Assembly (NCBI GenBank): GCA_030694465.1
Contig: JAUXYJ010000103.1
Span: 155,057-219,056 of the forward strand
Origin: Deltaproteobacteria bacterium
GTDB lineage: Bacteria; Myxococcota_A; Polyangia; Polyangiales; Ga0077539
Direction: 5' to 3'
Length of the DNA: 64,000 nucleotides
Shown here piece after piece: positions 22,919 to 58,014 of the stretch. The notes beneath the pieces were generated by a model that did not search any database, had not been told where the DNA came from, and saw only the letters and a list, made by a program, of their open reading frames with translations. How positions within the stretch are numbered: position 1 is the first letter of the stretch; each line of letters opens with the position of its first letter. The position numbers were made by a program, and so were the translations under genes.

Positions 22919-23446
22919 TTACAGGGATCCGAGGGGATCGTCTTCGAGCTTGGCGTTGTCTAACCCGCCGCATTTGCGCAGGGCTTCGTAGACGACAATG
23001 GCCGCGGCGCTGGCGAGGTTGATCGACCGGACGGCGCCGGCGGTGGGGATTCCGTAGCAGCGATCGCTAAATCGTTCGAGCAGGTCGCGCGGGAGCCCAG
23101 CGGACTCTTTGCCAAACACAAGCGCGTCGCCCGGAGCGATGTCCATGTCGAGATAGCTCTTGGCGCCTGTGGCTGAGAATACGTGGATTTTTGCACTAGG
23201 TTTGCGCAACTCGAAGGACCTAAAATCCGGGTGTGTCTCGAGCTTTACGAGGTGCCAGTAGTCCAAGCCCGCGCGCCGCACGGCCTTCTCATCGATCTGA
23301 AAGCCGAGGCGCCCGACGAGGTGCAGTGGGCACTGCGTTGCGGCACACAATCGCGCGATGTTGCCTGTATTCTGCGGGATTTCTGGCTCGACCAGCACCA
23401 CCTCAAGGGGCGACGCGAGGGGCGAAACGCGGAGCTTGCGTGTCAT
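22919..23446 (-). CDS. trmL: tRNA (cytidine/uridine-2'-O)-methyltransferase TrmL (SpoU family)
   Basis: VVLVEPEIPQNTGNIARLCAAT…LVFGKESAGLP. TrmL-sized, single SPOUT domain. Confidence 0.85.
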   Translation of the reverse strand: MTRKLRVSPLASPLEVVLVEPEIPQNTGNIARLCAATQCPLHLVGRLGFQIDEKAVRRAGLDYWHLVKLETHPDFRSFELRKPSAKIHVFSATGAKSYLDMDIAPGDALVFGKESAGLPRDLLERFSDRCYGIPTAGAVRSINLASAAAIVVYEALRKCGGLDNAKLEDDPLGSL

Positions 23447-23477
23447 GTGCGCGGGACGATACCGTCACACTCGCCGT

Positions 23478-24717
23478 GATGTCCGAGACTTTTTGCCCAC
23501 CCGCCCGTCGATCGCACTCTCATCCACGCAGCGCCCTGCGTGCGTTGCGCTGCGTCGCCGCTGTCGCGATGAGCGCTGCACCCCAGATCGCCCACGCGGA
23601 CACGAACGATTTAGCGCTCAATCGCCTGACTTTCTTCGATGGCGCCGCGGTCGGTGCGCCCGAACCCGCGTTTCAGTTTCGTGGCGGATGCGGCACGATG
23701 GCCGCGAACTATGCGCAGTGCTTTGCAGACAACACAGCGTTTGCAAACCTCGCCAATGAGCTTGGCGGAGCGCTCGCTCCCGGGCTCCTCGCGCCTGCCG
23801 CGACCATTGGCTACAACCGCGTGTACATCGCGTACGAGCACTCGATCACCAACATCAACGCGGGCTCCTCGCTGCGCCACTGGCAGCGTGGAACCGAGGG
23901 CATCGCGGCCTCGTCGCAGGGCAACGGCACCGAGCGCTCACGCACCCGCGTCCCCGAGGTTCTCTTCGCCTCGCGTTTGCACATGCGCCACGGGCTGCCC
24001 TACGGCTTTGAGCTCGGCGCGCAAGGGACCTACCTCCACGACTCGGGCCTGGTCGCCATGGGCGTGGACATCAAGTGGGCTCCCTTCGAGGGATTTCGCA
24101 CGGGTGTGGGCTACATCCCCGACATCGCCATCCGCGGCGCGGTCAACACGCTCGTGGGCAATCAGCAGCTCTATCTCACGGTCGTGAGCATCGACGCGCT
24201 GATCTCAAAGGCCATCACCGTCGCGGGCTCGTTCTCGATTACGCCCTACGCGGGGCTGCAATCGCTCTTGGTCTTTGGGGACTCTACGGTGATCGACGGG
24301 ACGCCGACGCGCTCAAGCTCGCAAGAGTGCTCACGACGCGACACGGTCTACAGCACAGACCCCATGACCGGACAGACCACGTCCTCGCTCGTCTGCGTCG
24401 CCGGAACAGGCACCCCCGCCGGCGCCTCCAGCGACTCTTTTAACGACGTAGTCTTTTTGCCCACGAGGCTCCTGCGCTGGCGGCCATTTGGCGGATTTCG
24501 CATCAAATACGGGGTCTTTACCTTCACGTCCGAGTTCATCATGGACGCGACCTCTCCCACGGCGCTCGCGGGCGGCTGCGGTGGCAGCGGCTCAGTCCCC
24601 GCGTATTGCGTCTCGGGGCGCCCTCGCGCGTCCAACGACGCCACACGGGACGCAGTGCAAATCGACCCGAATTTTCGCCAGTTCTCCGTGAACTTCGGCG
24701 TCGGCGTGACCTTCTAG
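23478..24717 (+). CDS. outer-membrane beta-barrel protein (hypothetical porin-like)
   Basis: Signal peptide …AAVAMSAAPQIAHA/DT. Alternating amphipathic beta-strand pattern. C-terminal VNFGVGVTF ends in an aromatic residue, typical of OMPs. The start codon is uncertain. Confidence 0.5.
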
Positions 24718-24721
24718 CGCT

Positions 24722-24741
24722 GACCCGGCGACGTCGCCGGA
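24722..24741. repeat. GC palindrome copy 1 (GACCCGGCGACGTCGCCGGA; perfect 16-nt core CCGGCGACGTCGCCGG), 8 nt after OMP stop codon
   Basis: Direct reading. The palindrome is centred on GACGTC. The 20-mer is identical to the copy at 33187–33206. Confidence 0.8.
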
Positions 24742-24787
24742 GTCATTCGCTTGCCACCGACCACCCCTCGCGTCCATCGTCACGCGC

Positions 24788-25519
24788 ATGACCGAGCGCG
24801 CCCCTGTGCAAGAGCCCTCTTCGCGATGGATCTATCACCTCGTGACCCCCTCGCGGTGGGCCCTCGGAGATGACCCGTACACGCCCGACTCGATCGCGCA
24901 TGAGGGCTACATCCATGGCTCTTTTCGCAGTGAATTACGCGAGAGCGCCAGGCTCTACTTTGCCCCCGAGAGCGCTCCCATTGTGCTGCAGCTCGACCCT
25001 GCCGTGCTGGCCGCGCATGGGATCGAGATCGTGTACGCCGACACCCCCCGCGGACCGATGCCACACCTGCACGCGCCGCTGCCACGCGCTGCGGTTCATC
25101 GCACGCTCACGCTCGACGAGAGTGACCAGAGCGACGACACACGCTCTGCGCTGGACACACTCTTGGCCAAGGTCCACGCGTTTAATCTCGCGCGCGATTG
25201 GCAGCAGTTTCACTCACCCAAGAACCTCGCGATGGCGCTGACCATCGAGGCCAGCGAGCTCGCCGAGCCCTACCGCTGGGACACCGACGCGCAGGCCTGG
25301 GAGCGCGCCCTGAGCGAGGCTGGACGCGCGCACCTGCAAGACGAAATGGCTGATATTTTGCTGCTATTACTCTCTCTCGCGGACTACAACAAGCTGGACC
25401 TGCTCGGCGCGACCGAGGGCAAGCTCGCGCGCAATGAGTCGCGCTATCCCGCTGCGCAATCCCGAGGACGCGCGGACAAGTACACCGCGTACCAAGCGCG
25501 CAAACCCGACGAGCCCTAA
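24788..25519 (+). CDS. DUF952 – MazG-like nucleotide pyrophosphohydrolase fusion protein
   Basis: The N-terminus WIYHLVTPSRW…PDSIAHEGYIHGSF is DUF952-like. The C-terminus is MazG/dCTPase-like (…EASELAEPYRW…ADILLLLLSLADYNKLDLLGATEGKLARNESRYP). Confidence 0.7.
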   Translation: MTERAPVQEPSSRWIYHLVTPSRWALGDDPYTPDSIAHEGYIHGSFRSELRESARLYFAPESAPIVLQLDPAVLAAHGIEIVYADTPRGPMPHLHAPLPRAAVHRTLTLDESDQSDDTRSALDTLLAKVHAFNLARDWQQFHSPKNLAMALTIEASELAEPYRWDTDAQAWERALSEAGRAHLQDEMADILLLLLSLADYNKLDLLGATEGKLARNESRYPAAQSRGRADKYTAYQARKPDEP

Positions 25520-25580
25520 GCGCTTGCCCCACGAACCGCGTCAGAGCTGTTGCACGCGAGTGCTGTTGCGCTACCCTCGC

Positions 25581-26387
25581 GACCCTCATATGGCAATCGA
25601 AGCGATCGCACTGCTCAAGTTTACGCCCGCACAAATCGAAGCCGCTTTTCCGGCCCAAGGGAGCACGCGCCCAGGCGCAGACGGCCAGCCGCTCAAGCTC
25701 TCGGCGCTCGAAGACGCGGTGTTGCTCACGCTCAACGTGAGCTTTGACCTCGAGCCCGACGAAGCCGGCGCGCTCTTGCGCAAGCGTCTTGGGTCGCTCC
25801 TCGATTCGCACACAGACAGCCGCGGAGTGCTCGTGCTCCCCGACCGCGCCAAGCCCCGCAGCAAGACCTACGACGACGCCATCGACGAGGTCGGCGAGCT
25901 GGGTTTCTGGGCCAAAAAAGTCGACAAAGACTACAAGCCGGCTGCACGTACCCCACGCGCGCAGCTCGACGAAGACCTGAGCAAGACCCTCAGCGATGAC
26001 AACACCCTCGGCGCACAGATGCAGGCCATGATGGGCGGGTTCTCGCCCGACATGATGGCGCAGGCGCAAGCCATGTTGGGCTCTCCCCAGGGCGCAGATC
26101 TCTTCGCCATGGCACAGCAACAGCTCCAAGCCATGATGTCTCAGCCCGGCGGAATGGACGCCCTCGCCAAAGGACTCAGCGAGGTCATGGGCGCTCAAAA
26201 CATCGACGCAGGCCAGCTCAAAGCCATGCTCCCCGAGAAGATGCCCACCCCCGAAGAGATGAAAGCCCTCTTTGAGCAAGGCAGCAAAGACTTCGAAAAC
26301 ATCGCCCGCGAAGACCCCAGCAAGGTCAAAGAGCTCACCGACAAGTTTGGCTCACTGCTCGACTCTAAAGAGCCCAAAAAGAGCTGA
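25581..26387 (+). CDS. hypothetical Met/Gln-rich protein
   Basis: ATG at 25581. It has a central low-complexity region (MQAMMGGFSPDMMAQAQAMLG…MAQQQLQAMMSQPGGMD). The antisense 365-aa ORF is His/Arg-rich and unlikely to be real. Confidence 0.45.
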   Translation, partial: DPHMAIEAIALLKFTPAQIEAAFPAQGSTRPGADGQPLKLSALEDAVLLTLNVSFDLEPDEAGALLRKRLGSLLDSHTDSRGVLVLPDRAKPRSKTYDDAIDEVGELGFWAKKVDKDYKPAARTPRAQLDEDLSKTLSDDNTLGAQMQAMMGGFSPDMMAQAQAMLGSPQGADLFAMAQQQLQAMMSQPGGMDALAKGLSEVMGAQNIDAGQLKAMLPEKMPTPEEMKALFEQGSKDFENIAREDPSKVKELTDKFGSLLDSKEPKKS

Positions 26388-26422
26388 GCCCCGCGCAACC
26401 GTCCGTCGTTGCCGCTCTGCCT

Positions 26423-27883
26423 TTGATCACCAATCTGCCGCTCTCACGCGCCGCCAAGCGCGCACTTTGGCTCTGCCTCACCGCGCAGGGTCTGTCAGCG
26501 ATTTTGGCGGCCCTCATGATCCTCGCGGGTCCCGAACTAGACACCGACGCGTTCGGCCACTTTATCGTCGCGCGCCGCATGATCGAGCACCCCAGCATGG
26601 TGTCTGTGCACTGGGTGTGGCTCCCGCTTTGGCACATGGTGTTGGCCGCGATCGAGCTGCTGGGGGGCGGGCTCACCAGCGCGCGCTGGCTCTCGTGGAC
26701 CCTCGGCGGGGTGACCTCTGCCGTTGTATTTGCAGCGCTCTCGCAAGAGAGCCCAGAGCTCGACCGCTCACATCGCGTGATCGAGGCCTCGCTCGCCGCG
26801 GGCCTGTGGGCGCTGTGTCCCCTCGCCCTGCTCGCGCGCAGCTCGGCCGAACCTGAGGCGCTGTTCACATTATTGATCAGCGTCTCTGCGTGGCAGTGGG
26901 CACGCCATCACCCCTGGCGCGCCGGGACAGCGCTGGCCCTCGCGGCGCTCTGTCGCTACGAAGTGTGGCCCGTCCTCGGGGCGGTCGCGCTGTGGCCTTG
27001 GATCAATCCATCCGCCAAATCCCTCGGACAACGCGCGATCGATGCACGCAAAGATCTCGGCACGTGGCTGTTGCCCGCCCTCGCGGTGCTCGCGTGGTGT
27101 GCGGTTCACCGCGTGCAGCACGGCGAGTGGCTCTGGTTTGTCCGCGAGAACCGCGCGTTTGCGCTGCGAGCCGTGGCGCGTTTGTTTGTCTCGCTGCCCT
27201 CGGTGCCGCGTCGCGCGGCTTGGTATGCGCTCACGTTGCCCTGGCTCGTGTGGGGCCCCGCGGTGCTCTTGGCGCCATGGGGAATGTGGCACCTGCATCG
27301 CAGGCGACACCATCGCTGGCTGCTCATGCCCTGCGTGATTGTCACGTTCTTGAGCTACGCGTGGCTGCGAGGACAGCACCTTGGGCTGGTCCGACACGCG
27401 ATCGCGACCAGCCCGTTTTATGCGGGCGCGATTGCGCTCGCGCTGACGGCGTGCGCTCGCTGGGCCCAGGGCGATCCGCGACGACGTGCTGCGTTTGTGT
27501 TGTGCATTGGCGTGTCATTTTGCTGGTTTATGTTCAACGTTGGGGCCCATGTGCGTGGGCATGTGCTGCAGGCCCAAGGCGCCCAGCGCGAGGTCCGCGC
27601 CGCGGCCGCGCTGCTCGCGCGCGAAGCCCACGACGACGCGATGGTGTTTTGCGATGACGCGATGGTCGAGCTGCACGCCGAGCTCGACCGCACGCATGTG
27701 CGTCGCTGGGCCGGGCGCGATGTGCGCCGCGCCAACGTGTGCGAAGCCCAGCTCGCGACAGGTCAGCCGACCTGGGTCGTGAGCACCCCGCGCTCGCTAC
27801 GCGCGCTGCAGGGCCTGTGCGAGCCGAGATTCAGCGCGCGCTCGGTGCTGGTACTGCGCTGTGATTGTCAGCTATTTCGCTGA
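26423..27883 (+). CDS. polytopic membrane protein, GT-C superfamily glycosyltransferase-like (PMT/ArnT-like)
   Basis: About 11 predicted TM helices. The first loop carries D-x-D..FGHF (LDTDAFGHFIV), resembling the DE.HFG motif of GT39/GT83 enzymes. The start (TTG 26423) is uncertain. Confidence 0.45.
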   Translation: MITNLPLSRAAKRALWLCLTAQGLSAILAALMILAGPELDTDAFGHFIVARRMIEHPSMVSVHWVWLPLWHMVLAAIELLGGGLTSARWLSWTLGGVTSAVVFAALSQESPELDRSHRVIEASLAAGLWALCPLALLARSSAEPEALFTLLISVSAWQWARHHPWRAGTALALAALCRYEVWPVLGAVALWPWINPSAKSLGQRAIDARKDLGTWLLPALAVLAWCAVHRVQHGEWLWFVRENRAFALRAVARLFVSLPSVPRRAAWYALTLPWLVWGPAVLLAPWGMWHLHRRRHHRWLLMPCVIVTFLSYAWLRGQHLGLVRHAIATSPFYAGAIALALTACARWAQGDPRRRAAFVLCIGVSFCWFMFNVGAHVRGHVLQAQGAQREVRAAAALLAREAHDDAMVFCDDAMVELHAELDRTHVRRWAGRDVRRANVCEAQLATGQPTWVVSTPRSLRALQGLCEPRFSARSVLVLRCDCQLFR

Positions 27884-28815
27884 TCCAAGTGAGCACGCGC
27901 CTGCGCGATCGCCTCGCGCACGACCTCGGCCGAGTGAGCGAGCTCGCTGCGCTCACGCGCGCTGCATTCAGGCAGTCCCAGCGACGTGGCGCCGTGCGAG
28001 CCCACAATGGCGGGGAGCCCAAGAGTGCACGAGAGCTCTTTGCTGTAGGTCGACACCGTGAGCACCGTGCGCTCGTCGCGTGCGATGGCCCGTGCGATGC
28101 GCGCGGTGACCGCTCCGATCGCGTGAGAGGTAGCGCCCTTGCGCGCGATGATCTCTTGCGCAGCGCCACGCACTTCGCGCGTGAGGGCGTCCCGCCAAGC
28201 ATCATCGAAGGGCACGCCGTTGCGCGCGCAAAACTCGCGCAAGGGCACACCCGCCACGCGCGCGCTGTCGAGCATCGAGACCGACGAGTCACCGTGCTCG
28301 CCCAGCACCCAGGCGTGGACACTCGACGGATGAATCGCGAATTTTTCTGAAATAAAGCTGCGCAAACGCGTGGTGTCGAGCACCGTCCCGGTCCCCAATA
28401 CCGCGACGCCGAGGGGCTCCCATCGGGCACGCAACAGCTCGGTCATCACGTCCACCGGGTTGCTCACGACCACAACGACCCTGGGCAACCCGCCACGCTC
28501 GATGGCCTCAGCGATCTCGCGCATCGCGTGGGCGTTGCGTGCCAAGAGCTCGAGCCTCGTCTCGCCAGGGTGCTGCTTTGCGCCCGCGGTGATCACGCAC
28601 AGGTCCACAGGGACGAGCGCGTCCATCGGCAGCGCCTCGACCTGCGGGGCGCCCATCAAAGGGGCCGCGTGTGCGAGGTCCAGGGCCTCACCCTGGGCCT
28701 TGTCCATCTTAATGTCCGTTAAGATTAAATGACTAGCGATTTGGCTGTACATCATGGACATCGCGCACGCGACTCCGACGGCCCCGGCGCCCACGATCAA
28801 CACACGATATTTCAT
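27868..28815 (-). CDS. ldh: L-lactate dehydrogenase
   Basis: Rossmann motif VLIVGAGAVG. The substrate loop ITAGAKQHPGETRLEL has Gln rather than the Arg of LDH-like MDHs. Catalytic motif GEHGDS. Confidence 0.85.
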   Translation of the reverse strand: MKYRVLIVGAGAVGVACAMSMMYSQIASHLILTDIKMDKAQGEALDLAHAAPLMGAPQVEALPMDALVPVDLCVITAGAKQHPGETRLELLARNAHAMREIAEAIERGGLPRVVVVVSNPVDVMTELLRARWEPLGVAVLGTGTVLDTTRLRSFISEKFAIHPSSVHAWVLGEHGDSSVSMLDSARVAGVPLREFCARNGVPFDDAWRDALTREVRGAAQEIIARKGATSHAIGAVTARIARAIARDERTVLTVSTYSKELSCTLGLPAIVGSHGATSLGLPECSARERSELAHSAEVVREAIAQARAHLDQRNS

Positions 28816-28820
28816 ACCCG

Positions 28821-29333
28821 CTAGCGCCCCATGCGGCCGGTGAGCTCAAGGAGCACGGTGTTGGTCGCCTCGCTTGGAGGCGGCAGCCTCGTCGAGGCGA
28901 TCCCGCGAAAGGTCAGGACGCCCGCGGTGACGCTCATCGTGACCATGCGAAAGGTCAGCGTGGTCTGCGTCCCGCCCGCGGTCACAGTGCACATCGCGCC
29001 ATCGGCGAACACAGCCGAATTACCACGCCGTTGCGCAGAGATGGTGCACAGCGACGCGCTCGACGTGTCCGAAAAGGTCACGCTCATCGAGGGCATCGGG
29101 CTGTTCTCGATGCGCACAATGACGTTGCTCGGCGACGCGGTCCCTGGGCCCGAAGGGGTCTGCTCGGTGGCGGTCCCGCTCATGGCCCAGGTGCCCAAGA
29201 AGGGCCCCGCGCCGGCCTCGACCACCTCGCCTGGCACAACGATCAACGGAGAGCCCGCGCCGCACGCCGTAGCGCTCAGGGCCATGCCAATCACCAACGC
29301 AGCCGAGAGCCGCGACCATCGAGGGGTATTCAC
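28821..29333 (-). CDS. lipoprotein, cassette component A (paralogue of 31077..31682)
   Basis: Lipobox LSATACG. It shares GTWAMSGTAT, …DGAMCTV… and GVLTFRGIAS blocks with the upstream paralogue. Confidence 0.5.
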   Translation of the reverse strand: MNTPRWSRLSAALVIGMALSATACGAGSPLIVVPGEVVEAGAGPFLGTWAMSGTATEQTPSGPGTASPSNVIVRIENSPMPSMSVTFSDTSSASLCTISAQRRGNSAVFADGAMCTVTAGGTQTTLTFRMVTMSVTAGVLTFRGIASTRLPPPSEATNTVLLELTGRMGR

Positions 29334-29381
29334 GGGGCGAGATCTTACGCAAGGTCGCGCGCAGAAGACAGCCGCGAGCGC

Positions 29382-30014
29382 TCAGCAGTGCGCGACGTTT
29401 GCCGCACGAATCATCATCGCGCGCACCACCCTGAGCACCACCGCGTTGTTGAGCCCTACGCGCTCGGTCGCGCCGATGCCCGACTGCACGGTGGTCACAT
29501 AGCGCCGCCGCGAGATGCTCCCTGGCGTCGCCACGTAGCCCGAGACCGCGGCCGCCTCGACCAAGACCTCGATGGTGGCCCCACGAGGGCTCGTCCAGCG
29601 GATCCTCGACATCCGCCGCGCCAAGATCCCGCTGAGGTCCTCGGCGAGGTCCTGCGCCCTAAACGCGGTCTGCTGCGAGGTCACTGGGGCGAGCCTCCGC
29701 AATCGTCTCGCCATCGCCCGCTCACCGATGCGCTCAAGGGCCATCGGCGCGAGCTCGCGCACCATCATGTCCGCGATCACGTAGCCCACTTCGCGCTCGG
29801 AAAACGCGGCAGTGCTCACGCCGGATGAGTTGTCAATTTGCACGTCGCTGAGCCCGCCCGCGACCGCGCGGAGCTGTCGCATGGCGTCGTTGCGCAAGAG
29901 ATTGAGCGTGGGGCTCGGCGAGAGACACCGCGGCTGCGCGCTCGCTCGCGACGGTCCCACGGTGATCGCACTCACACACACGGCCAACGCACACACCCAG
30001 GTCGTCCAACGCAT
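29382..30014 (-). CDS. secreted protein, cassette component B (paralogue of 31654..32277)
   Basis: Signal peptide MRWTTWVCALAVCVSAITVGPSRASA. It aligns along its whole length with the B' copy (QPRC.SPSPTL…AAFSEREVGYVIADMMVRELAP…ANVAHC). The start is set at ATG 30014 to avoid overlap with glk. Confidence 0.5.
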   Translation of the reverse strand: MRWTTWVCALAVCVSAITVGPSRASAQPRCLSPSPTLNLLRNDAMRQLRAVAGGLSDVQIDNSSGVSTAAFSEREVGYVIADMMVRELAPMALERIGERAMARRLRRLAPVTSQQTAFRAQDLAEDLSGILARRMSRIRWTSPRGATIEVLVEAAAVSGYVATPGSISRRRYVTTVQSGIGATERVGLNNAVVLRVVRAMMIRAANVAHC

Positions 30015-30027
30015 GGGCGCCAGTGTC

Positions 30028-31020
30028 TCATGCCAGCAGGGCTGACGCTCGCGCGGCGCCCCACAATGGCAAGCGCTCGTCGGTGATGAGCCAGATGGGC
30101 ATGGCCGCGAGGGTCTGCGCAAAGCGCCCCTTGTCGCTAAATCCCCTGCAAAAGTCCCCGAGTTCGAGCACTTTTGCGAGCTTGGCGCTCACGCCCCCTG
30201 CGACGTACACTCCGCCGCGAGACAGCACGCTCAGCGCGAGGTTGCCTGCCTCGGCGCCATACAGCTCGCAGAAGCGTCGGGCTGCGCGCATGCACAACAC
30301 ATCTCGGCCCTGGACCGCTTCGTCACCGATGACCGCCGAGGGGTCTTCGTGGGCCATGCGCTCTCGGACACGTGGGCTCTCGGCGCCTGGTTCGCGCTGG
30401 GCCATTGAGGCATAGACCCACGCGAGACCTGGGCCAGAGACAATTCGCTCGACCGAAACGTGAGGGTTTTCGCCGCCCAATCGCGCTTGGGTAAATCGCA
30501 ACAGGGCGACGTCTTCGTCGGTCCGTGGCGCGAAGCTCTTGTGTCCACCCTCGGTCGCGATCGCGAAGTGTTGTCCCTGGTGTGCGATCAACGCGCTCTC
30601 GCCCAAGCCCGTCCCTGCGGCGATCACGGCGATGTTGGCGTTGCGATCCGCGGTGCCTTCTTGCAAGCACACACACTGCGAAGGGTCGACCGCGAGCACC
30701 CCGTACGCGGTCGCTTGGAGGTCATTGAGCAAGAGCACCCGCGAGGGCGCGACCCCCAGCGTATGCGCGAGCGCGCGGCCGTCGATGACCCAGCGCAGGT
30801 GCGTGGTCTCACAGCGCTGATCGCTGACCACTCCGGGGAGCCCAAAGCATGCCGAGGTCACGCGCGAATCCGAGAGAAATTGCACACAGAGCGCATCCAG
30901 AGAGTCCCACGATGCGCTGTCAAAGACAGCCTCGCGCACGAGGCTAGGCGTGGGCCCTTGGGTCTCGAAGAGGCCGAGTCGAACTTTGGTTCCACCGATG
31001 TCACCTGCGAGGATTGTCAC
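30028..31020 (-). CDS. glk: glucokinase
   Basis: ILAGDIGGTKVRLGLF N-terminal ATP-binding motif typical of Glk. LLNDLQATAYG. GTG start at 31020 assumed. Confidence 0.85.
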   Translation of the reverse strand: MTILAGDIGGTKVRLGLFETQGPTPSLVREAVFDSASWDSLDALCVQFLSDSRVTSACFGLPGVVSDQRCETTHLRWVIDGRALAHTLGVAPSRVLLLNDLQATAYGVLAVDPSQCVCLQEGTADRNANIAVIAAGTGLGESALIAHQGQHFAIATEGGHKSFAPRTDEDVALLRFTQARLGGENPHVSVERIVSGPGLAWVYASMAQREPGAESPRVRERMAHEDPSAVIGDEAVQGRDVLCMRAARRFCELYGAEAGNLALSVLSRGGVYVAGGVSAKLAKVLELGDFCRGFSDKGRFAQTLAAMPIWLITDERLPLWGAARASALLA

Positions 31021-31048
31021 GGGGGCAAAGTTAGCAGAGCAGCCCCGT

Positions 31049-31068
31049 ACCCGGCTACGTCGCCGGGT
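31049..31068. repeat. GC palindrome variant copy (ACCCGGCTACGTCGCCGGGT), between cassette gene A' stop and glk start
   Basis: One mismatch relative to the perfect palindrome. It lies 9 nt downstream of the TAG at 31077–31079 (minus strand) and ~28 nt upstream of the putative glk GTG. Confidence 0.6.
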
Positions 31069-31076
31069 GGCTCGCG

Positions 31077-31682
31077 CTAGCGACGCCCAGAGAGCTCCGA
31101 GCGGGTGATCCTGGGCTCTTGGTCGCGGCCAAAGCCAGGCAACCACATTCGCGCAGAGATCACCCCGCGAAAACTCAGCACGCCGTGCTGCACCGAGAGC
31201 GAGGCTTGAGAGAACACAAGATCAACGAACACCGGTGAACTTCCAGTCCGACAGGGCGTCCCCTCGGCGATCACGGCGGTGTTGCGAGTCCGCGCGAGGG
31301 GCACAACGCACAACACCTCGGCAGGCTCAAAGACGGTGAGCTGCAGGCCCCTCCCTGGGATGTCTTCGATCCGCATCGTGAGCGTCACGGGTCTCACCAG
31401 AGGCAGAGGCTCGCCAGGTCCCGACAGATGGGTCGCCGTCCCGGTCATGGTCCACACCCCCACCATGGACTCGAGGGGTGCCTCTTCGAGCCTCGTGAGG
31501 GGGTCATCGAGGGGCGTGCTCGCGCCGCACGAGAGCGCGCAAAGCGCCTGCCCCATCGCGAGCGCGATCCCCAGAGTCCGCGTCGCCCGTCTGTCCCCCA
31601 TGGTCTTCACCTTGGGGGTGACTGTAGCAAACCTCGGGCAAGATGGGTAGTGGTCACTCACATCGCGCCACGCTCGCAGCAC
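31077..31682 (-). CDS. lipoprotein, cassette component A' (paralogue of 28821..29333)
   Basis: Lipobox ALSCGAS. It has GVWTMTGTAT, …EGTPCRT…, GVLSFRGVIS. Confidence 0.5.
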   Translation of the reverse strand: MLRAWRDVSDHYPSCPRFATVTPKVKTMGDRRATRTLGIALAMGQALCALSCGASTPLDDPLTRLEEAPLESMVGVWTMTGTATHLSGPGEPLPLVRPVTLTMRIEDIPGRGLQLTVFEPAEVLCVVPLARTRNTAVIAEGTPCRTGSSPVFVDLVFSQASLSVQHGVLSFRGVISARMWLPGFGRDQEPRITRSELSGRR

Positions 31683-32277
31683 GGATCAACATCGCCCTCA
31701 TGATTTGCAGTACCGCTTCACTCTGTAAGCCTACGCGCTCGGTGGCTCCGACCCCTGACTGGATCGTGGTGACATAGCGCACGCGGTGCATGCTGCCGGG
31801 GGTCGCGACATAGCCCGAGACCGCAGCCGCCTCGACCAGAACCTCGAGGGTCGCACCACGCGGAGTTCTCCAACGGACACGCCCCATCCGTCGCGCGAGC
31901 GTGTTGGCGAGGTCTTCGGCAAGGTCCTGCGCCCGAAATGCGGTCTGCTGGGAGGTCACCGGCGCGAGCCTCCGCAGACGCCTGGCCATCGCGCGCTCTC
32001 CGATGCGCTCGAGCGCGAGGGGCGCGAGCTCACGGACCATCGTGTCTGCGATCACATAGCCAACTTCGCGCTCTGAAAACGCAGCCAAGTCCACACCCGA
32101 TGAGTTGACGATAGGGACATCTCGGAGACCCGTCGCCACGTGATGAAGCTGCCGCATCCCGGCGTCACGGACCATCGCCAACGTGGGACTAGGCGACACA
32201 CACCGAGGCTGTGCAGAGGCACTCACCGACGCGCTGCCAAGCACAAGGACACACAGACTCGCAGGGATCCATCGCAC
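31654..32277 (-). CDS. secreted protein, cassette component B' (paralogue of 29382..30014)
   Basis: Signal peptide MRWIPASLCVLVLGSASVSASA. About 75% nucleotide identity with the B copy over its length. Confidence 0.5.
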   Translation of the reverse strand: MRWIPASLCVLVLGSASVSASAQPRCVSPSPTLAMVRDAGMRQLHHVATGLRDVPIVNSSGVDLAAFSEREVGYVIADTMVRELAPLALERIGERAMARRLRRLAPVTSQQTAFRAQDLAEDLANTLARRMGRVRWRTPRGATLEVLVEAAAVSGYVATPGSMHRVRYVTTIQSGVGATERVGLQSEAVLQIMRAMLIRAASVARCE

Positions 32278-32393
32278 CCTGGCAGTGTGTCACATCGCGC
32301 GCGCAACCTGGGCCGCGACGCGCTGGGCGTTTGCAGCAGAGCGTGCTCTCAATCCAAACCACAACAGCGGACGCGATGCTCCCCCGTTTGGCG

Positions 32394-32897
32394 CTAACCC
32401 GGCGACGTCGCCGGGTTACTCACTGCCATGGCGTCTACCCGCGCGACGAGCGCATCGAGCCGGTCCACCAGCGCACGTTGCGTGTCAATTTGCTGCTGTG
32501 CGAGCGCTTGCGCGGTGTCTTCTCGGGCTCGCTGCGCTGCGCTCGGGGGCTCGAGCGCGCGCGCGGCCATCGCGGGCCCGAGGGTCATCAATGCGCTCGC
32601 GATGGCCTTGCCCGCGGTGGTCACCGCGAACACCCGCGCATAGCCCACCGAGAGACACGTGGTGGTGAACACCAAGGCGTCCCAGAACGAGTTGACCTCG
32701 GGGTTTGCGTCGCGCTCGGCGACATAGAACAGCCACGCGCTCCCGAGGCTCGTCGCGATCACCGCGTCCAACGGATCTTGGGCGATCACTGCGCGAAGCT
32801 CATCGCGCGCCGCGCCGTACGCGCCGCCTAGGTCTTGCGACCCAAGCACGCGGCCAAGCGCTGAGAGCGCGAGGGTCTCGGCGGCGTTTGTGCTCAT
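32394..32897 (-). CDS. 2-TM ion-channel-like protein with K+-channel-type pore loop (non-canonical filter)
   Basis: TM1 (LDAVIATSLGSAWLFYVA), then NSFWDALVFTTTCLSVGYA (cf. K+-channel sfwWavvTmTTVGYGD), then TM2 (VFAVTTAGKAIASALMTLGPAMAA), then a helical C-terminal tail. Its ATG overlaps the flotillin stop (ATGA). Confidence 0.55.
   Translation of the reverse strand: MSTNAAETLALSALGRVLGSQDLGGAYGAARDELRAVIAQDPLDAVIATSLGSAWLFYVAERDANPEVNSFWDALVFTTTCLSVGYARVFAVTTAGKAIASALMTLGPAMAARALEPPSAAQRAREDTAQALAQQQIDTQRALVDRLDALVARVDAMAVSNPATSPG
32396..32417. repeat. GC palindrome copy 2 (AACCCGGCGACGTCGCCGGGTT, perfect 22-nt palindrome) forming the last 7 codons of the channel-like gene
   Basis: Direct reading. 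On the minus strand it encodes …NPATSPG followed immediately by TAG. Confidence 0.8.
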
Positions 32898-35083
32898 GCG
32901 CCCTCGGCCTCGCGTGCGGTGTCACTCGCTGCGCGCACACCGATGGTGCCCGTGGCGTTGGCGTCCATCGCGGCGAGTTTGGCTGCGAGCTCGGGGTCTT
33001 CGTTGGCGACCTTGCGCAGCTCTTCGGGGAGCGCGCCCAGCATTTTGCGCGCCGAATCGGTCAGGCGGTCCGTGTCAACCTGTGCAAACTGCATGAGCTC
33101 ACGCAAGAGCGGAAACGCCGCGCCCGCCTCGAGGATCGTGCGCAACACAGGCGACGCCGCGCCGAACGCGCCCTGTCCGTTGCCCGACCCGGCGACGTCG
33201 CCGGATGAGCCACCCTGGCCATTGTTCATCTGCAAGACCTTGATCTCGCGGATGGCGTGCGCCGGGGCCATGAGCTCTTTGGTCACGTCGGGCAGCACGG
33301 TGAGCGCCTTGAGCACGATGTCACGCAGCAAGAACTTGCTGGCCACTTGGTTCTCGGCGTCGACCAACGCTTTGCGTGCGTCGGCCTCGGCGGCGCCCTT
33401 TTGCCGCGTCGCTTCAGCGAGCGCGATGAGCGCTTCGGCCTCGAGCTGCGCAGCTTTTGCCCGCGCCTCTGCAGTGATTCTCACGCGGTCTGCGTCTGCT
33501 TGGGCCTCGGCACGGACCACATTGGCCGCCGAGTCCGCGGCGACCATGAGCGCGCGCGCAGAGCCCTCTGCCTCGGCGATGTGGCCCTCGGCTTGGGCAC
33601 GCTTCGCCGCTGCAGCGCCGTCGGCTTCGGCTTTGACGGCAGCCGCGCTGGTCTCTGCGCCAAGCTTGCGTACAAAGGCTTCGCGCTCGGCCGCGATACG
33701 CGCTTGCTGAGCGCTCTCTTCGGATTTAATCACCGCGATCTCTTTCTCGCGGCGGGCCTGTGCGGTGGCTTCGACCGTGAGAATTCCCTGGGTTGCCTGC
33801 GTTCGGTCCGCTTCGGCTTGGAGCTTGAGCGCCTCGGCGCGGGCCTCGACCTCGAGCGCCTGGGTCACCGCGATTTGCTTGGACACACGCGCGGTCTCGA
33901 TCACGCGCTGCTTCTCGATTTCGGCAGCCTCGATGGTCTTGACCTTCTCGATCTCGGCGGTCTCGATGGTCTTGCGCTTCTCGACCTCGGCGTTCTCGAC
34001 GGTGCGCTGCTTCTCGATCATCGCGGCCTCGACCTCGCGCTCTTTGGCGATCACCGCGACCTGCTGCTGCTTCTCGGACGAAATCTGCGCCTCGCGGGTC
34101 GCAGCGACGCGCTGAGCCTCTGCGATTTGCAGTGCTTTTTGCTGCTCGATCTTCGCGTTCTGCACAGCCTGCTCTTTCGAGAGCGCGGCCATCTCTTGGT
34201 CGCGCTGCTGCTCGTACACGGCCTTGGCGGTCGCGGTCGATTGCGTCGCGGTGTACTCTTGCACACGGCGTGTCTGGTCACTCTCGTTGCGGTTGTCCGC
34301 TTCGATCAGCTCAAGCGCGCGACGATGCGCGGTGACGTTTTGCTCTTGGATCGCGACGTCGGCTTCGCGCTCGATCAAGTTGGTCTTGCGCGCGTTGGCC
34401 TTCACCTGCTCGGTGATGGTCATCAGGCCCTCGGAGTCAAAGAAGTCCGACGCGTTGAGCTCGGCGATCGACACCATTGCGAGGGCCGTGATTGACACGT
34501 TCTCGAGGGTAAGACCGTTCTTTTTGAGCTCTTCAGAGAGGGCCTTCTGGATGCTCTCGGCGAAGTCTTTGCGGTTGGTGTGCAGCTCCATAAACGAGCT
34601 GTTGGCCGCGACAGAGCGCAGGGCGTCCGTGAGCTTTCCCTCGATGAGATCGCCGATCGCGCCTTCGTCGAGGTTGCGCTCACCAAACGAGCGCGCCGCG
34701 GTGAGCACGTCGTCTTCGAGCGGCTCGACCTTGATGTAGAGCTCGGTCGTGACGGTCGCGCGGATCTTGTCGCGCGTCACCAGGGCCATGTTGCCCGAGC
34801 GATCGACCGTGAGTTTATGCGAGCGAAGTGAGACTCGCATGAGCTGATGCAAGATCGGAAACACGGTGACACCGCCGCCGATCACCACTTTGTTTCCGCC
34901 TGCGCCCGTACGCACCAGCGCCTCGTCAGCGCCACAGCGACGATAAAACCGCGCGATGGTGACGAGCAACAGCGTGAACACAAAGATCACCGCCGAAGCG
35001 ATCAACGCCGAGACAATAAACTGCGGCTGCTCCCAAAAGCGAAGCGCCGAACCCTGTGCGACAAAGACCTCTAGCTGATTCAT
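32894..35083 (-). CDS. flotillin-like SPFH/band-7 protein (YqiK-type) with long EA-rich coiled coil
   Basis: N-terminal TM, PHB domain (…KLTVDRSGNMALVTRDKIRATVTTELYIKV…) and an extended EA/Q-rich repeat region typical of flotillins. Confidence 0.85.
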   Translation of the reverse strand: MNQLEVFVAQGSALRFWEQPQFIVSALIASAVIFVFTLLLVTIARFYRRCGADEALVRTGAGGNKVVIGGGVTVFPILHQLMRVSLRSHKLTVDRSGNMALVTRDKIRATVTTELYIKVEPLEDDVLTAARSFGERNLDEGAIGDLIEGKLTDALRSVAANSSFMELHTNRKDFAESIQKALSEELKKNGLTLENVSITALAMVSIAELNASDFFDSEGLMTITEQVKANARKTNLIEREADVAIQEQNVTAHRRALELIEADNRNESDQTRRVQEYTATQSTATAKAVYEQQRDQEMAALSKEQAVQNAKIEQQKALQIAEAQRVAATREAQISSEKQQQVAVIAKEREVEAAMIEKQRTVENAEVEKRKTIETAEIEKVKTIEAAEIEKQRVIETARVSKQIAVTQALEVEARAEALKLQAEADRTQATQGILTVEATAQARREKEIAVIKSEESAQQARIAAEREAFVRKLGAETSAAAVKAEADGAAAAKRAQAEGHIAEAEGSARALMVAADSAANVVRAEAQADADRVRITAEARAKAAQLEAEALIALAEATRQKGAAEADARKALVDAENQVASKFLLRDIVLKALTVLPDVTKELMAPAHAIREIKVLQMNNGQGGSSGDVAGSGNGQGAFGAASPVLRTILEAGAAFPLLRELMQFAQVDTDRLTDSARKMLGALPEELRKVANEDPELAAKLAAMDANATGTIGVRAASDTAREAEGA
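33187..33206. repeat. GC palindrome copy 3 (GACCCGGCGACGTCGCCGGA) inside flotillin CDS
   Basis: Identical 20-mer to copy 1. It encodes SGDVAGSG in the Gly-rich C-terminal region of the flotillin. Confidence 0.8.
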
Positions 35084-43812: not shown

Positions 43813-44075
43813 AGGGGATGCAGGCTTGGTGAGATGCGTTGCGCAGAGTGTACGCGTGGGGCCTTCACTTCACTGCACGACGTGTGGGTTCTCACACGAT
43901 CTGTCACGCACATGCGAACGTCGCATACCGCACTCAACCGCGGATGTCTGGTAGCGTCTAACAACATCTACGCTTGTTTTCGCACGAGTCGCTAAGACGC
44001 TGCATTCTGCTGCGCTGAGCACTCGTTCGAGCCAAAGTTTCTATTTTGCTTGTCCACTCTCGCCAGGAGCGATCC

Positions 44076-46739: not shown

Positions 46740-47182
46740 GCCGCTCGCTGCGCACCTAAGGGGGGACTGATTCGTTCAGCGGGGGCTGTGCGCGACCGCG
46801 CCTCGTGCGAGGGGTTGCGCAGGAGAAATCACCGAATCGCCTGACCGATGGACCGGACGAGAAAAGTGCGCTTCGAGCTCGCGAGAAACCTCGACCGTGA
46901 CCACTCTCCGCGTCTCTTTGCTGCTGTGCAGTTCGCTCTCGCTGCGGTGCTCACGCGGATCCGGCAGCGCTCTGAACTCCTGCTTGAATGACTCACGGAT
47001 GCCTGCTCGAAACGTCCTGGATCTCTAGGATCTCAGTGGTCGGTGTAGGCCCAGAGTTCCTCACGGAGTCCAAGGGTCGCCCGATGCGCTAACCCCGCGT
47101 GCAGACCTCGTCCAAGAGCGCGATGGATCGGGAGCGTCCAGCGCAGCACCGTTGCCACGCGCGAGGTGGGTCGGTCGGCTCT

Positions 47183-48148
47183 CTAGGACAGAGGGCTCTG
47201 ACCGGCTTCGCCCGCGAGGAGATAGAGCACAGCCATGCGCACAGCGACGCCAGCTTCGACTTGGTCGAGGACCACGCTCTGGGGGCCGTCAGCGATCTCG
47301 GGGTCGATCTCGACGCCCCGGTTCATCGGGCCGGGGTGCATCACGATCGCGTCGGGTTGGGCGAGCTTTAAGATCTTGTGGTTGAGCCCAAAGTGTCGCG
47401 AATACTCTCGCGCAGTCGGAAACAACACCTCGCCCATTCGCTCGCGCTGGATCCGCAACATCATCAGGACATCGGCGCCTTCAGCTGCACGCGCGAAGTT
47501 GTCAAACACTTCGACCCCCAGGCGCTCGATGCCCGGCGGGATCATCGTGCGCGGGCCGCACACACGCACGGTCGCTCCCAAGCGCGTGAGCAAGTGCGCG
47601 TTGCTGCGCGCGACGCGCGAGTGCGTGAGATCGCCCGTGATGGTCACGACAAGCCCGGCGAGCCTGCCCTTGGCGCGGCGGATGGTGAAAGCGTCCAAGA
47701 GCGCCTGGGTGGGGTGCTCGTGCGTTCCGTCGCCTGCGTTGACAACCGAGGCGCGGGTGCGCTTGGCGATAAAGTGCGGCGCGCCGCTTGAGCCATGGCG
47801 CATCACGATCACGTCGGGCTGCATGGCCTCGAGGTTCTTGACCGTATCTAAGAGCGTCTCGCCCTTGGACACACTCGAGCCCGACGAGGACACGTTGACC
47901 ACGTCGGCGCTGAGGCGTTTTCCGGCGATTTCAAACGAGGTGCGCGTCCGGGTGCTGGCCTCAAAGAACAGGTTGATCACGGTCTTGCCACGCAGCGTTG
48001 GGACCTTGCGGATCTTGCGACGCGAGACATCAAAGAAGACCTCGGCGGTGTCCAAAAACTGCACAATCCGCTGGGTCTCGAGCTTCTCGATGTCGAGCAA
48101 ATGCCGGTGCGTAGCGCTCATGGCAGCAACACTCTCTCGTGTGATCAC
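47183..48148 (-). CDS. pyrB: aspartate carbamoyltransferase catalytic subunit
   Basis: STRTR carbamoyl-phosphate motif, HPTQALLD, and HP.P motif. Full length. Confidence 0.95.
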
Positions 48149-48717: not shown

Positions 48718-48900
48718 AAGAGACTAGTCGCTTCGGATCACAGCGTCGAGAACCGTGCAAACCTCGGGCGCCGTGACTCGCGTCCACATCGTTCGGGGTT
48801 GTGTGCTTCTGCGCAGAACAGCATGCGAGTTGTTCACTTGTTTGTTGACCCCGAGCCTAAGGTCTACTCATGCTTTCGCCGAAAGTGAGGGTGCGACGGG

Positions 48901-50906: not shown

Positions 50907-50981
50907 CGATCCCCCAAAGGGCCGGCACGTCCCACGTGGCCCCACCCACCTCTTTTGCACCCCCCCCATTGAGCACGCATC

Positions 50982-54004: not shown

Positions 54005-54016
54005 TTCACTGGGGAT

Positions 54017-56362
54017 TTAGCGTCTGGGGCAATGGGACGTCGCCGGCCGCAAGAGCTCACTCATGCGCGAGCGGAGCTGCTCGGCGACCGCGGACTCTTG
54101 GCTGTACACATTGCGCCGCTCGGCCGCGTCGCGATCGAGCTGAAACAGCTCCCAGCTGTTGCGTGTCGCGTCGTGGAGGAGCTTCCACGGGGGCGCTACG
54201 AGCGCGAGGCTCGTCGGACGGAGATCTCCACCGGGGGACACATCTGCCGCGAGGGCACCACGCCACGGGATCTGCGCTTCGGGTGCGCTCTGAAGCAGCG
54301 GGACCAGCGACCTCGCGGGCGAGCGCAGCGTGGGCGTGCGGCCTACGTACGCGAGCGCGGTGGGATACAAATCCATCAACGAGACGAGGCTGCGACGCGG
54401 CCCCGGACGAATCCCCGGACCCCGCACTACGAGCACCACCCGCAGCGCCTCTTCGTGCGCGTCAAACGCGTGGTAATTTACACCGTGTTCGTTAAACGCT
54501 TCGCCGTGATCGCTGAACACCACGACGATGAGCGGGCGAGCCTCTGCGATGCGGTTGGCCGTGCGAAACAAGCGAGGCAAGAGCGAGTCTACGTGGGCGA
54601 TCTCTTCGTCGTAACGGTCGATCGGTTCGTGGCCGAAATCCCGAGGCTCTGTGCGATCGGTGTAGGGCTCGTGCGGATCGACCATGTGCACCCACAAGAA
54701 GAAGGGCCGCGCCTGACGACCCGCGTTGAGGAGCCAATCGCGCGCGTGGTCTACGGTCACGTACGCGGCATCTTTGAACCCGTTGCCCTGCTCGACCGTG
54801 TCAAATCCCTGAAAAAATCCAGCCGTTAGCGCGAAGTAGCTCGTGTTGGTGTAGGCCCCTGTCGCGTAGTTTTCTACGCGGAGCACCTCGGCGAGCATCT
54901 CGTTCGCGTCACGCAATGGCGGAAACTGCGGGTCGCGTCCCCAGCACAGGCTCGCCGGAGGGCGCCCTGAGAACGCGCTCGCGAACGCGCGGATGGTCTG
55001 CGGCGCCGTGGTGTACGCCTGATCAAATCGCGCGGCGTTCTGTGCGAATTCTCTGAGATTGGGCGTGGTGTCACGCGCGTATCCGTAGAGCGATGTGTGA
55101 TCCGGGCGCATCGTGTCGATCGAGATAAACAGCACCGAGGGGTGGTTGCTCGCGGGAGCGACGAAGGGCGCAGGGCGATCCTCGGGCGCGGGCACAGCGT
55201 CGAGCCCTGTGCAGTTTTCGTCCCGTCCATTGCCTGGAATATCTCGCGCGAGTGGGTTGATCCGAGGATCGCGGTCGTTGCAATCGCCCCCGCCAAAGTA
55301 CCGGCCGTAGCCATCATGGTCCGCGTCAGTCCAGCGCTGTAGCGTCGGAAAAATCTTTGAAGCGAGCAGCGACCGCTGAGTGATCGCGTCGGTAATCCAT
55401 GGGTTTTTTCCGAGCGTCATCGCGCTCAACCCAAACGCGACGACCACTGTGCTCGCCAGCACCCACGTCACCGAACGCGCGATCGTGGGTCGAGCTCTCT
55501 GCACCCACCGCAGCGCGAGCCCATAGCCCACCAAGCCCATCAGCGACAACCCGAGCGGGCGGAGGTCCAGACGACTTAGAACGTTTCGTCCTGCAAAAAC
55601 AGTGACCAATAGAGACAAGCCTGCGAGCGCTGCCACCACCAATCCCACTGCGCCTGGGCTCGCCCAGCGACGTCGCCGGGACAACGGGAGCTCGAGCATC
55701 ATGGCCGCGACCATGGCCGCGATCACCCCAAGCCCGAGCGACGCCACGCCCGCCGAGACGATCAGAATCGCAGCCAGCATGGGCGTCCGCACGCTCTGCA
55801 CGATGAGCACAGTGGCCCGCAGCGCGATGACTGCCGCAGTGAGCGTGCCAATCGAGGCCATCACCACACGCAGGGCGCCACGTTGGTCCTCGGCGAACCA
55901 TCGCGCGGGGCCCTCAAGAAAATAGGCACGCGCGCGCTGCACCGAGCCTCGACGAAGCGAAGAGAAAACCGCAATGGCGTGCAAAATCCCTAGCATAGAG
56001 CCCAAGGGGGCGATCGCACCGAGGGCATACGCGAGCAGCCACCCCAGCCCACTCGCGCGACGCTCAAACGCCGAGGTCCGCGCAAAGGCAACGAGTGTGT
56101 CTGTAAGCGCGAGCGCGCACGAGACGCCAAGCGCGGCGCTCACATGGGCCAAGAGCAACACGCGCAGGGTGGGCGGCTCGATCGCAGTGGGCGTCTCGGA
56201 CGACGCGGTCGTGGGAGCAGATGTCACGGTAAATCGCTGGATCGCAGAGAGCTGCGCAGACGCGTTCGACACTAGCGCGAATCGACAGCGCGATGCGTAG
56301 TCATTTGTCGCATCGGTGGGTGCTCTGCGCGGCAACGCGAGTACACTGCCTGCACCTTTCAT
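54017..56362 (-). CDS. membrane-anchored sulfatase-like (alkaline-phosphatase superfamily) hydrolase/transferase
   Basis: At least 8 N-terminal TM helices. C-terminal domain with SIDTMRPDH metal-binding motif and a TTAPQT putative Thr nucleophile region (LtaS/EptA/arylsulfatase-like). The exact start is uncertain. Confidence 0.75.
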   Translation of the reverse strand: MKGAGSVLALPRRAPTDATNDYASRCRFALVSNASAQLSAIQRFTVTSAPTTASSETPTAIEPPTLRVLLLAHVSAALGVSCALALTDTLVAFARTSAFERRASGLGWLLAYALGAIAPLGSMLGILHAIAVFSSLRRGSVQRARAYFLEGPARWFAEDQRGALRVVMASIGTLTAAVIALRATVLIVQSVRTPMLAAILIVSAGVASLGLGVIAAMVAAMMLELPLSRRRRWASPGAVGLVVAALAGLSLLVTVFAGRNVLSRLDLRPLGLSLMGLVGYGLALRWVQRARPTIARSVTWVLASTVVVAFGLSAMTLGKNPWITDAITQRSLLASKIFPTLQRWTDADHDGYGRYFGGGDCNDRDPRINPLARDIPGNGRDENCTGLDAVPAPEDRPAPFVAPASNHPSVLFISIDTMRPDHTSLYGYARDTTPNLREFAQNAARFDQAYTTAPQTIRAFASAFSGRPPASLCWGRDPQFPPLRDANEMLAEVLRVENYATGAYTNTSYFALTAGFFQGFDTVEQGNGFKDAAYVTVDHARDWLLNAGRQARPFFLWVHMVDPHEPYTDRTEPRDFGHEPIDRYDEEIAHVDSLLPRLFRTANRIAEARPLIVVVFSDHGEAFNEHGVNYHAFDAHEEALRVVLVVRGPGIRPGPRRSLVSLMDLYPTALAYVGRTPTLRSPARSLVPLLQSAPEAQIPWRGALAADVSPGGDLRPTSLALVAPPWKLLHDATRNSWELFQLDRDAAERRNVYSQESAVAEQLRSRMSELLRPATSHCPRR

Positions 56363-56364
56363 TC

Positions 56365-57938: not shown

Positions 57939-57986
57939 CGAGCCCGCACAATCGGGCGGTCTCAGATGCAAGCGCGAAAGCAGTGA

Positions 57987-58014
57987 TTGACAAGCGGGGG
58001 ATGTTTGTTAGTTT
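57987..58014 (+). promoter_or_regulatory. putative sigma-70-like promoter for tRNA-Ser (TTGACA-16-TAGTTT)
   Basis: TTGACA at 57987–57992 and TAGTTT at 58009–58014 with a 16-nt spacer, 16 nt upstream of the tRNA 5' end. Only a sequence match. Confidence 0.4.

Follow-up and report, generated by a model that had tools for sequence, protein, structure and literature searches.

A G+C-rich palindrome of 20-24 nucleotides (nt) is present four times within 8.5 kb of a 64-kb stretch of DNA (the window: positions 155,057 to 219,056 of contig JAUXYJ010000103.1, assembly GCA_030694465.1) from a metagenome-assembled genome (MAG) of a Deltaproteobacteria bacterium that belongs to the Polyangiales. The repeat is real, non-random and lineage-specific, and of the four copies known, two have become part of coding sequence. 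With about an even chance of being right, the copies are interpreted here as one short, lineage-specific, untagged hairpin repeat of the repetitive extragenic palindrome (REP) type, located at or next to stop codons and known from four copies in the 80 kb of this genome that have been read. A preliminary description of the window had considered REP-like or terminator elements, a restriction-site signature and a protein-binding site. Among these, the REP-like option fits best, on account of the absence of the palindrome in relatives, its copying at the DNA level, its position next to stops and its hairpin structure, whereas the copies are not canonical terminators. Coordinates are positions in the window, and the copies are named c1 (24.7 kb), c2 (31.05 kb), c3 (32.4 kb) and c4 (33.2 kb); their features and those of the surrounding genes are collected in Table 1.

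The 20-mer GACCCGGCGACGTCGCCGGA is matched exactly at 24722-24741 (c1) and 33186-33205 (c4), so that the double occurrence first noticed is exact at both sites, the second one lying one position to the left of the 33187-33206 originally given. Its 16-mer core, CCGGCGACGTCGCCGG, is found without mismatch at 24725, 32399 and 33189, and the core at 31051, CCGGCTACGTCGCCGG, differs from it by a single mismatch. This last copy had been placed correctly (31049-31068, ahead of the glucokinase gene glk), but the gene upstream of it is gene B and not A', which ends at 31654. The palindrome at the end of the K-channel gene (an Ion_trans_2 protein) is perfect, as first described, over 24 nt (TAACCCGGCGACGTCGCCGGGTTA, 32395-32418) instead of the 22 nt claimed, and it supplies the final seven codons of the gene, NPATSPG, followed by TAG. 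The consensus of the four copies is (T/G)(A)ACCCGGCGACGTCGCCGGGT(T)(A), with about 80% G+C at the sites and all 16-20 positions conserved, the centre included, and the spacing between successive copies is irregular (6326, 1348 and 790 nt). Three of the four copies are also found in L090, a Logan assembly made independently from the same sample.

Three copies overlap a stop codon or start 3-8 nt past one, between genes of the same strand: c1 and c2 are intergenic (3 and 8 nt past the stops) and c3 covers the stop and the seven codons before it. The fourth, c4, is fully intragenic and codes for SGDVAGS (in the context SSGDVAGSG, which agrees with the in-frame SGDVAGSG reading made earlier) in a variable Gly/Ser-rich linker of the flotillin, between ...KVLQM and FGAASPVL.... 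The hexamer TAGCGC does adjoin three copies, as had been pointed out. Of the 13 TAG codons that end predicted genes of the window, 6 are followed by CGC, so that this genome seems to favour TAGCGC as a stop context, and the hexamer is ancestral at the K-channel gene. Its orientation to the dyad differs between c3 and c1/c2, which speaks against a part of the element; its presence beside the copies may be a coincidence of stop context or a weak target preference. Among the predicted genes of the window, TGA is used as a stop 25 times, TAG 13 and TAA 9.

Chance recurrence had been judged negligible, and the randomizations bear this out. Allowing up to 3 mismatches, the 20-mer yields 9 matches from 6 loci (the four copies and two coding near-copies) against a mean of 0.02 in 100 dinucleotide shuffles, and the 16-mer, with up to 2 mismatches, yields 8 against 0.20. 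When all proteins of the window were held fixed and synonymous codons were resampled, 0.01 exact 16-mers were expected in coding sequence and 2 are observed, the probability of an exact 16-mer given the peptide being 0.004 for SGDVAG and 0.0065 for PATSPG; the identity of the coding copies is, therefore, at the DNA level, and selection on the peptides can be discounted. In a profile built from the four copies, these score 20-26 bits and all look-alikes 13 bits or less, a gap of at least 7 bits.

Recurrence by chance or codon usage of an easily encoded G+C-rich sequence (GDVAG, PATSP, RRRR) would be the simplest alternative, and a background of this kind does exist, given that the central 10-mer GCGACGTCGC occurs 7 times against 0.77 expected from a third-order Markov model (about 9-fold). 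The look-alikes at 17714, 42829 and 55664 of the window, and at 11726 of another contig of the genome (L114), are all coding and spread over three frames (AATS, RRRR, GDVA). A scan of genome contigs with an 18-mer gave at least 89 scattered matches, mostly one-sided, in coding-looking sequence of unrelated high-G+C taxa. Runs of Gly-Asp-Val-Ala or Arg codons, which had been named as what might explain the motif away, do thus account for the near-copies at 17714, 42829 and 55664, but they fail for the four members, two of which are non-coding and all of which exceed both the near-copies in score and the 0.01-0.2 occurrences expected. For the members this explanation is effectively refuted, and we give it next to no weight. 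The half-site CCGGCGAC outside the dyads is about 3-fold above the third-order Markov expectation, like other codon-favoured oligomers such as CGGCGACG, and the window counts give no evidence for a separate family of isolated half-sites. The same 18-mer is contained in a longer repeat with identical flanks, present in at least four copies in a Paracoccaceae MAG (L004, L020, L044, L068; CBDETS010000007.1) and in a fifth copy in a second Paracoccaceae MAG (L026), which is probably a multi-copy gene or an insertion sequence (IS) element.

Comparison with relatives suggests that the palindrome arose in this lineage. The nearest other flotillins are 74-76% identical to that of the window, and four relatives (L103, L104/L105, L115 and a JGI contig, the last for gene order only, so that DNA was compared in three) keep all or part of the order PBP...YqiJ-flotillin-K-channel-(membrane protein)-...-DUF952/MazG-OMP-SpoU, where OMP is an outer-membrane-protein-like gene. 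The palindrome is absent from the relatives with DNA anywhere in 22 kb each, including the positions that match the copies, from about 115 kb of related DNA, and from the loci around the homologues of the rare gene A. The K-channel protein ends in DAMAVS-NPATSPG* in the window and in DAQTAPSTR*, DAQQPSAR* or DALATR* in relatives, and removal of 21 nt (AACCCGGCGACGTCGCCGGGT) from the gene leaves ...AGT TAG CGC, comparable to the ...CGG TAG CGC and ...AGG TAG CGC of L103 and L104, which suggests that about 21 nt were added just ahead of the ancestral TAG. The C-terminus of the OMP-like protein (...GVTF*) is conserved, and the spacer from its stop to the next start, which contains c1, measures 70 nt in the window versus 2-9 nt in relatives. 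The flotillin linker between KVLQM and FGAASPVL is of low complexity, with 20 residues in the window versus 16-20 in 11 relatives, several of which have G-(D/E)-G-A-G at the G-D-V-A-G of the window; as the net change in length is only 0-4 residues, a simple insertion at c4 is not demonstrated. As judged from these alignments, the three sites (c3, the c1 spacer and the c4 linker) appear to carry lineage-specific extra or divergent sequence. Both c4 in the flotillin and the new tail of the channel probably persist as passengers that these variable parts of the proteins tolerate. The fourth copy, c2, has no counterpart site, since it lies within a lineage-specific 4.5-kb block, A'-B-[c2]-glk-A-(C)-mdh (27868..32393, minus strand), at whose left edge c3 lies; judged by gene order, none of the 4 relatives has this block in the interval from the K-channel gene to the next gene of the shared order.

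The clustering of the copies around this block raises a different explanation, in which a single hairpin, for example that at the K-channel end, gave rise to the three others nearby through short-patch gene conversion or template switching while the region was being rearranged, and no genome-wide family exists. All four copies lie in 8.5 kb and none in about 71 kb of other sequence of the genome, the neighbourhood is a rearrangement hot spot (the 4.5-kb block, the duplicated genes A and A' with 74% amino acid identity, the new 70-nt spacer), c3 stands exactly at the edge of the block, and a codon version of the relatives' G-(D/E)-G-A-G linker is one base from the palindrome, which makes it a plausible conversion target. 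However, no established mechanism converts tracts as short as about 20 nt whose flanks are unrelated, the 80 kb sampled are less than 1% of a typical Polyangiales genome, so that absence elsewhere is weak evidence, and ordinary REP families also cluster locally (PMC3733652). A purely local origin is, on balance, unlikely. A more unusual variant would make the dyad a locally self-propagating junction element that marks, and perhaps mediates, the micro-insertions and the insertion of the 4.5-kb block; such an element, hairpin-templated or recombinase-targeted and with no known counterpart, may write itself into the channel end and the flotillin linker, and we regard it as quite improbable.

The position of c3 at the block junction and of c2 between two block modules could also be expected from sites of a site-specific recombinase (integron attC-like or dif/pdif-like) bounding the cassettes A'-B and glk-A-mdh, all the more as the palindrome could be divided into two inverted arms of 9 bp and, between them, a 6-bp GACGTC centre, with one extra-helical base in c1. 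This seems very improbable: the other edge of the block (the overlap of mdh with a 486-residue protein gene) bears no palindrome, the window encodes no integrase or recombinase, GTTRRRY/RYYYAAC cores are missing (GTTAGCG and GTTACTC in the flanks, for instance, deviate from GTTRRRY), the 20-24 nt are to be compared with 57-141 bp in attC, and gene A homologues occur elsewhere in unrelated contexts without such sites. An integron attC, a dif-like site and a CRISPR were all ruled out by length, missing cores, irregular spacing and the lack of a recombinase in the window.

At the RNA level, the sense strand of each copy forms a hairpin with 7-12 bp in the stem and ACGU in the loop (6 nt long in c2), with energies of -15.1 to -18.7 kcal/mol, or -22 to -28 kcal/mol when flanks are included. 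The comparison with shuffled controls that had been proposed shows the palindromes to be the more stable (z -2.6 to -5.0), with -18 kcal/mol and z -3.05 for c1, -15.1 kcal/mol and z -3.5 for c2, and -18.7 kcal/mol and z -5.0 for c3. The whole window contains 13 perfect stems of at least 8 bp, c1 being the sole intergenic one and c3 the sole one overlapping a stop. Like intrinsic terminators, the palindromes are G+C-rich hairpins directly past stop codons, but none of the four is followed by a T-run (and a terminator scan of the window lists none of them), so that they are not canonical terminators. They also differ from terminators in that three of the four are within same-strand gene runs, away from operon ends, and in that they recur identically, something that terminators do not need. 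U-tract-less hairpins (known as 'I-shaped') have been proposed as terminators in high-G+C bacteria. In metagenome contigs the perfect 20-mer has 12 matches, none related to the source of the window, and in three unrelated contigs ACCCGGCGACGTCGCCGGGT forms the stem of a canonical hairpin with T-run, which indicates that the 20-mer is a competent RNA hairpin arising repeatedly. In another contig (L092), a longer palindrome, of about 80 nt, has the 20-mer in its middle. An Rfam scan of the window found two tRNA-Ser genes only, and nothing at the palindromes.

A dyad of this symmetry could act in DNA as well, and the four copies might be operators or enhancer-like sites of one dimeric DNA-binding protein encoded elsewhere, which would co-regulate the genes downstream (DUF952/MazG, glk, A'-B and the K-channel gene). 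Perfect symmetry over 20 bp fits a dimer, each copy lies upstream of a gene start (42 nt for c1, 28 nt for c2, about 120-220 nt for c3 and about 290 nt for c4), and the flotillin copy, as well as the clustering in one neighbourhood, would require no special argument. On the other hand, the conservation of 16-20 positions with the centre included is closer to recent copying than to half-site selection, the G+C content of the sites is 80%, relatives that retain the same genes lack them, and tight packing against upstream stops is not expected of operators. Neither was any support found among the genes themselves: the cluster has no regulator gene in it or beside it (the product of B resembles a lipoprotein, those of A and A' are secreted, and ORF C is doubtful), Pfam finds no DNA-binding or regulator domain in the cluster genes, several of which have no Pfam match at all, and sigma-54 promoter motifs are matched 27 times against 32 expected, with no signal near the sites. 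The protein-binding option of the preliminary description is thus left with nothing in its favour from these domain and promoter searches, and we consider operator function distinctly unlikely. Its restriction-site option, of the AatII type, was likewise discarded, GACGTC being neither avoided nor strongly enriched (34 occurrences versus 25.7 expected).

The REP-like interpretation can be set against what is known of REPs, which are defined as palindromic stem-loops of about 14-40 nt that share a common consensus, are extragenic near gene 3' ends and occur in many dispersed copies (PMC12306157). They are mostly less than 20 bp past the upstream open reading frame (ORF), between unidirectional or convergent genes, with some overlapping or lying within ORFs, and their families comprise from less than 20 to thousands of members, some lacking the GTAG/CGTC tag and some forming local clusters (PMC3733652). 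The four copies are palindromic stem-loops, and they are short with a shared consensus. They agree with untagged REPs (PMC3733652) in being G+C-rich perfect or imperfect palindromes of 20-40 nt that give stable RNA hairpins, in lying, as three of them do, no more than about 20 nt from where an upstream ORF ends, between same-strand genes, in being lineage-specific and in occasionally overlapping ORFs, and they differ in that only four copies are known, all in 8.5 kb, in the lack of head-to-head dimers or bacterial interspersed mosaic elements (BIMEs) and in the half of the copies that overlap coding sequence. From the tagged superfamilies (PMC3733652) they are set apart by the lack of an unpaired GTAG/CGTC tetranucleotide head.

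Several observations weigh against this interpretation. Many dispersed copies define REPs, and here about 71 kb of other sequence of the genome (the rest of the window, the 2.7-kb L106 to its left and the 13.4-kb L114, on another contig and reached through Q8Q09_17860) contains no member; for four copies placed at random, such clustering in 8.5 of 80 kb has a post hoc probability of about 0.005-0.01, so that a local origin, or a local function as binding sites, is a live alternative. No GTAG/CGTC tag is present (the flanks TGAC, GTAC, TAAC and CGAC pair in the stem and CGTC is found only in the loop or centre), no dimer or BIME arrangement exists among the four copies, and no RAYT, Y1 or IS200-like transposase gene is found in the 64 kb. 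The share of copies that overlap coding sequence, one half, is above that usual for REPs, and a U-tract follows none of them. Finally, similarity beyond the 20-22-nt core is limited to c1 and c3 (16 of 24 positions, P = 0.0026 per pair) and lies partly in ancestral OMP codons, which makes the true size of the unit uncertain; for this same reason a larger unit of 40-100 nt, resembling a miniature inverted-repeat transposable element, could not be established.

Two other classes of dispersed sequence offer partial parallels. The Rickettsia palindromic elements (RPE) and intragenic REPs are also in-frame palindromic repeats in residue-tolerant protein segments, but RPE-1 is far longer and intragenic REP dimers encode 20-30 amino acids, compared with about seven codons here. 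DNA uptake sequences (DUS/USS) occur as inverted pairs in terminators and are also embedded in coding sequence. They resemble the present palindromes as over-represented dyads after genes and in variable protein segments, and they differ by their isolated half-sites, for a family of which the window gives no evidence, CCGGCGAC being only about 3-fold above its Markov expectation. A literature search with the palindrome sequence returned unrelated primers only.

If the copies are REP-like, the palindromes would have been copied at the DNA level in this lineage, settling at or beside stop codons, and the candidates for the copying agent would include a RAYT-like transposase whose gene lies elsewhere, and short-patch conversion among copies close to one another. 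By analogy with REPs, a transcribed hairpin between same-strand genes (OMP and DUF952/MazG, B and glk, K-channel and A') could serve as post-transcriptional punctuation. It would stop 3'-to-5' exonucleases, protecting the upstream mRNA, and may attenuate read-through or partly terminate transcription despite the missing U-tract, by which the expression of the upstream cistron might be uncoupled from that of the downstream one. It would also impede the terminating ribosome. Such hindrance is to be expected because the stems start no more than 8 nt past the stop or overlap it, inside the 16-nt distance of Escherichia coli, where translation is reported to be reduced by REPs nearer than this to a stop (PMC12306157, citing its ref. 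17).

The genes of Table 1 were taken from the Logan record and Pfam. The longest ORF of the OMP-like gene opens about 100 codons upstream of the starts of its orthologues in the alignment, the true start being placed about 100 codons past 23233, so that its first 100 residues (Arg/Ala/Ser-rich, 23233-23530) are probably untranslated. The paralogues A and A', which flank B and glk, share 74% amino acid identity and 78% nucleotide identity over 300 nt, and their family is very rare (6 proteins among 5.8 billion, the other members in unrelated contexts). ORF C (28861-29502, plus strand), a Logan call, overlaps gene A in antisense, has a low-complexity product that matches no family, and is unlikely to be a genuine gene. 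The 4.5-kb block has the G+C content of its surroundings and lies between the K-channel gene and a gene for a 486-residue membrane protein, a pair that overlaps tail to tail in relatives. The coiled coil of the flotillin contains five tandem 33-nt (11-residue) repeats at 33891-34065, of the EIEK-x-KTIE heptad/hendecad type; similar repeats are present in relatives, one of which (P0010) has an extra duplicated stretch. A second lineage-specific rearrangement spans 43800-59650: the FKBP and GNAT genes, directly beside PBP in relatives, are here about 14 kb away and inverted (58282-59642), and the region between comprises a Cys-rich 897-residue protein, pyrB/pyrR-like genes, a che-like cluster, sulfatase, MBL and HD genes and two tRNA-Ser genes. 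Secreted proteins with tandem Cys-rich modules are encoded at 5158-6207 and 44046-46739, with DNA repeats of 108-114 nt and 84-90 nt; they give a weak conotoxin-like Pfam match and have at least one paralogue elsewhere in the MAG (Q8Q09_17860).

Table 1. Palindrome copies, near-copies, terminator stems containing the 20-mer, and genes of the neighbourhood.
Feature	Coordinates	Strand	Description
Palindrome c1	24721..24745	+	TGACCCGGCGACGTCGCCGGAGTCA; one bulged A in stem; 3 nt past TAG of OMP-like gene (24715-24717), 42 nt ahead of DUF952/MazG start (24788)
Palindrome c2	31048..31069	-	ACCCGGCGACGTAGCCGGGT on sense strand; one core mismatch; 7-bp stem, 6-nt loop; 8 nt past TAG of gene B (31077-31079), 28 nt ahead of GTG of glk (31020)
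Palindrome c3	32395..32418	-	24-nt perfect palindrome TAACCCGGCGACGTCGCCGGGTTA; overlaps TAG of K-channel gene (32394-32396)
Palindrome c4	33186..33205	-	20-mer identical to c1; in frame within flotillin gene
Near-copy, non-member	55664..55679	-	CCAGCGACGTCGCCGG in sulfatase gene, read SRRRRW; at most 13 bits
Near-copy, non-member	42829		Coding (RRRRRW); at most 13 bits
Near-copy, non-member	17714		Coding (AATS); at most 13 bits
Terminator stem with 20-mer	L098, 58-77		Metagenome contig
Terminator stem with 20-mer	L100, 8296-8315		Metagenome contig
Terminator stem with 20-mer	L094, 298-317	other strand	Metagenome contig
OMP-like gene	23233..24717	+	Ends ...GVTF-TAG; c1 after stop
DUF952/MazG	24788-25519	+	Followed by two plus-strand genes without function assigned by Pfam or Logan calls
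Malate/lactate dehydrogenase (mdh)	27868-28815	-	
Gene A	29382-30014	-	Secreted; paralogue of A'
Glucokinase (glk)	30028-31020	-	GTG start at 31020
Gene B	31077-31601	-	Lipoprotein-like, 174 residues
Gene A'	31654-32175	-	Secreted; paralogue of A
K-channel-like gene	32394..32897	-	Ion_trans_2, 167 residues; 3' end is c3
Flotillin/SPFH gene	32894..35083	-	729 residues, 100% identical to NCBI MDP3279035.1; carries c4
NfeD/YqiJ-like gene		-	Neighbour of flotillin

REP-type repeats are already known and ordinary in bacteria, and the palindrome is best taken as a further example. A narrow check of the literature for the REP phrase together with Myxococcus or Sorangium, which was not a survey, gave no paper with that phrase among the 15 results listed. 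Should the palindrome prove to be scattered over the source genome, the Polyangiales would gain a described REP-like repeat, whose copies could mark operon punctuation in bacteria that have few terminators one can recognise. With a purely local set of copies, attention would shift to how a 20-nt dyad is copied between neighbouring sites. Under either reading, annotation should not take NPATSPG or SGDVAGS as conserved protein features, and the window provides a clean, small example of a repeat that remakes the 3' end of one gene and lies in frame in the linker of another protein.

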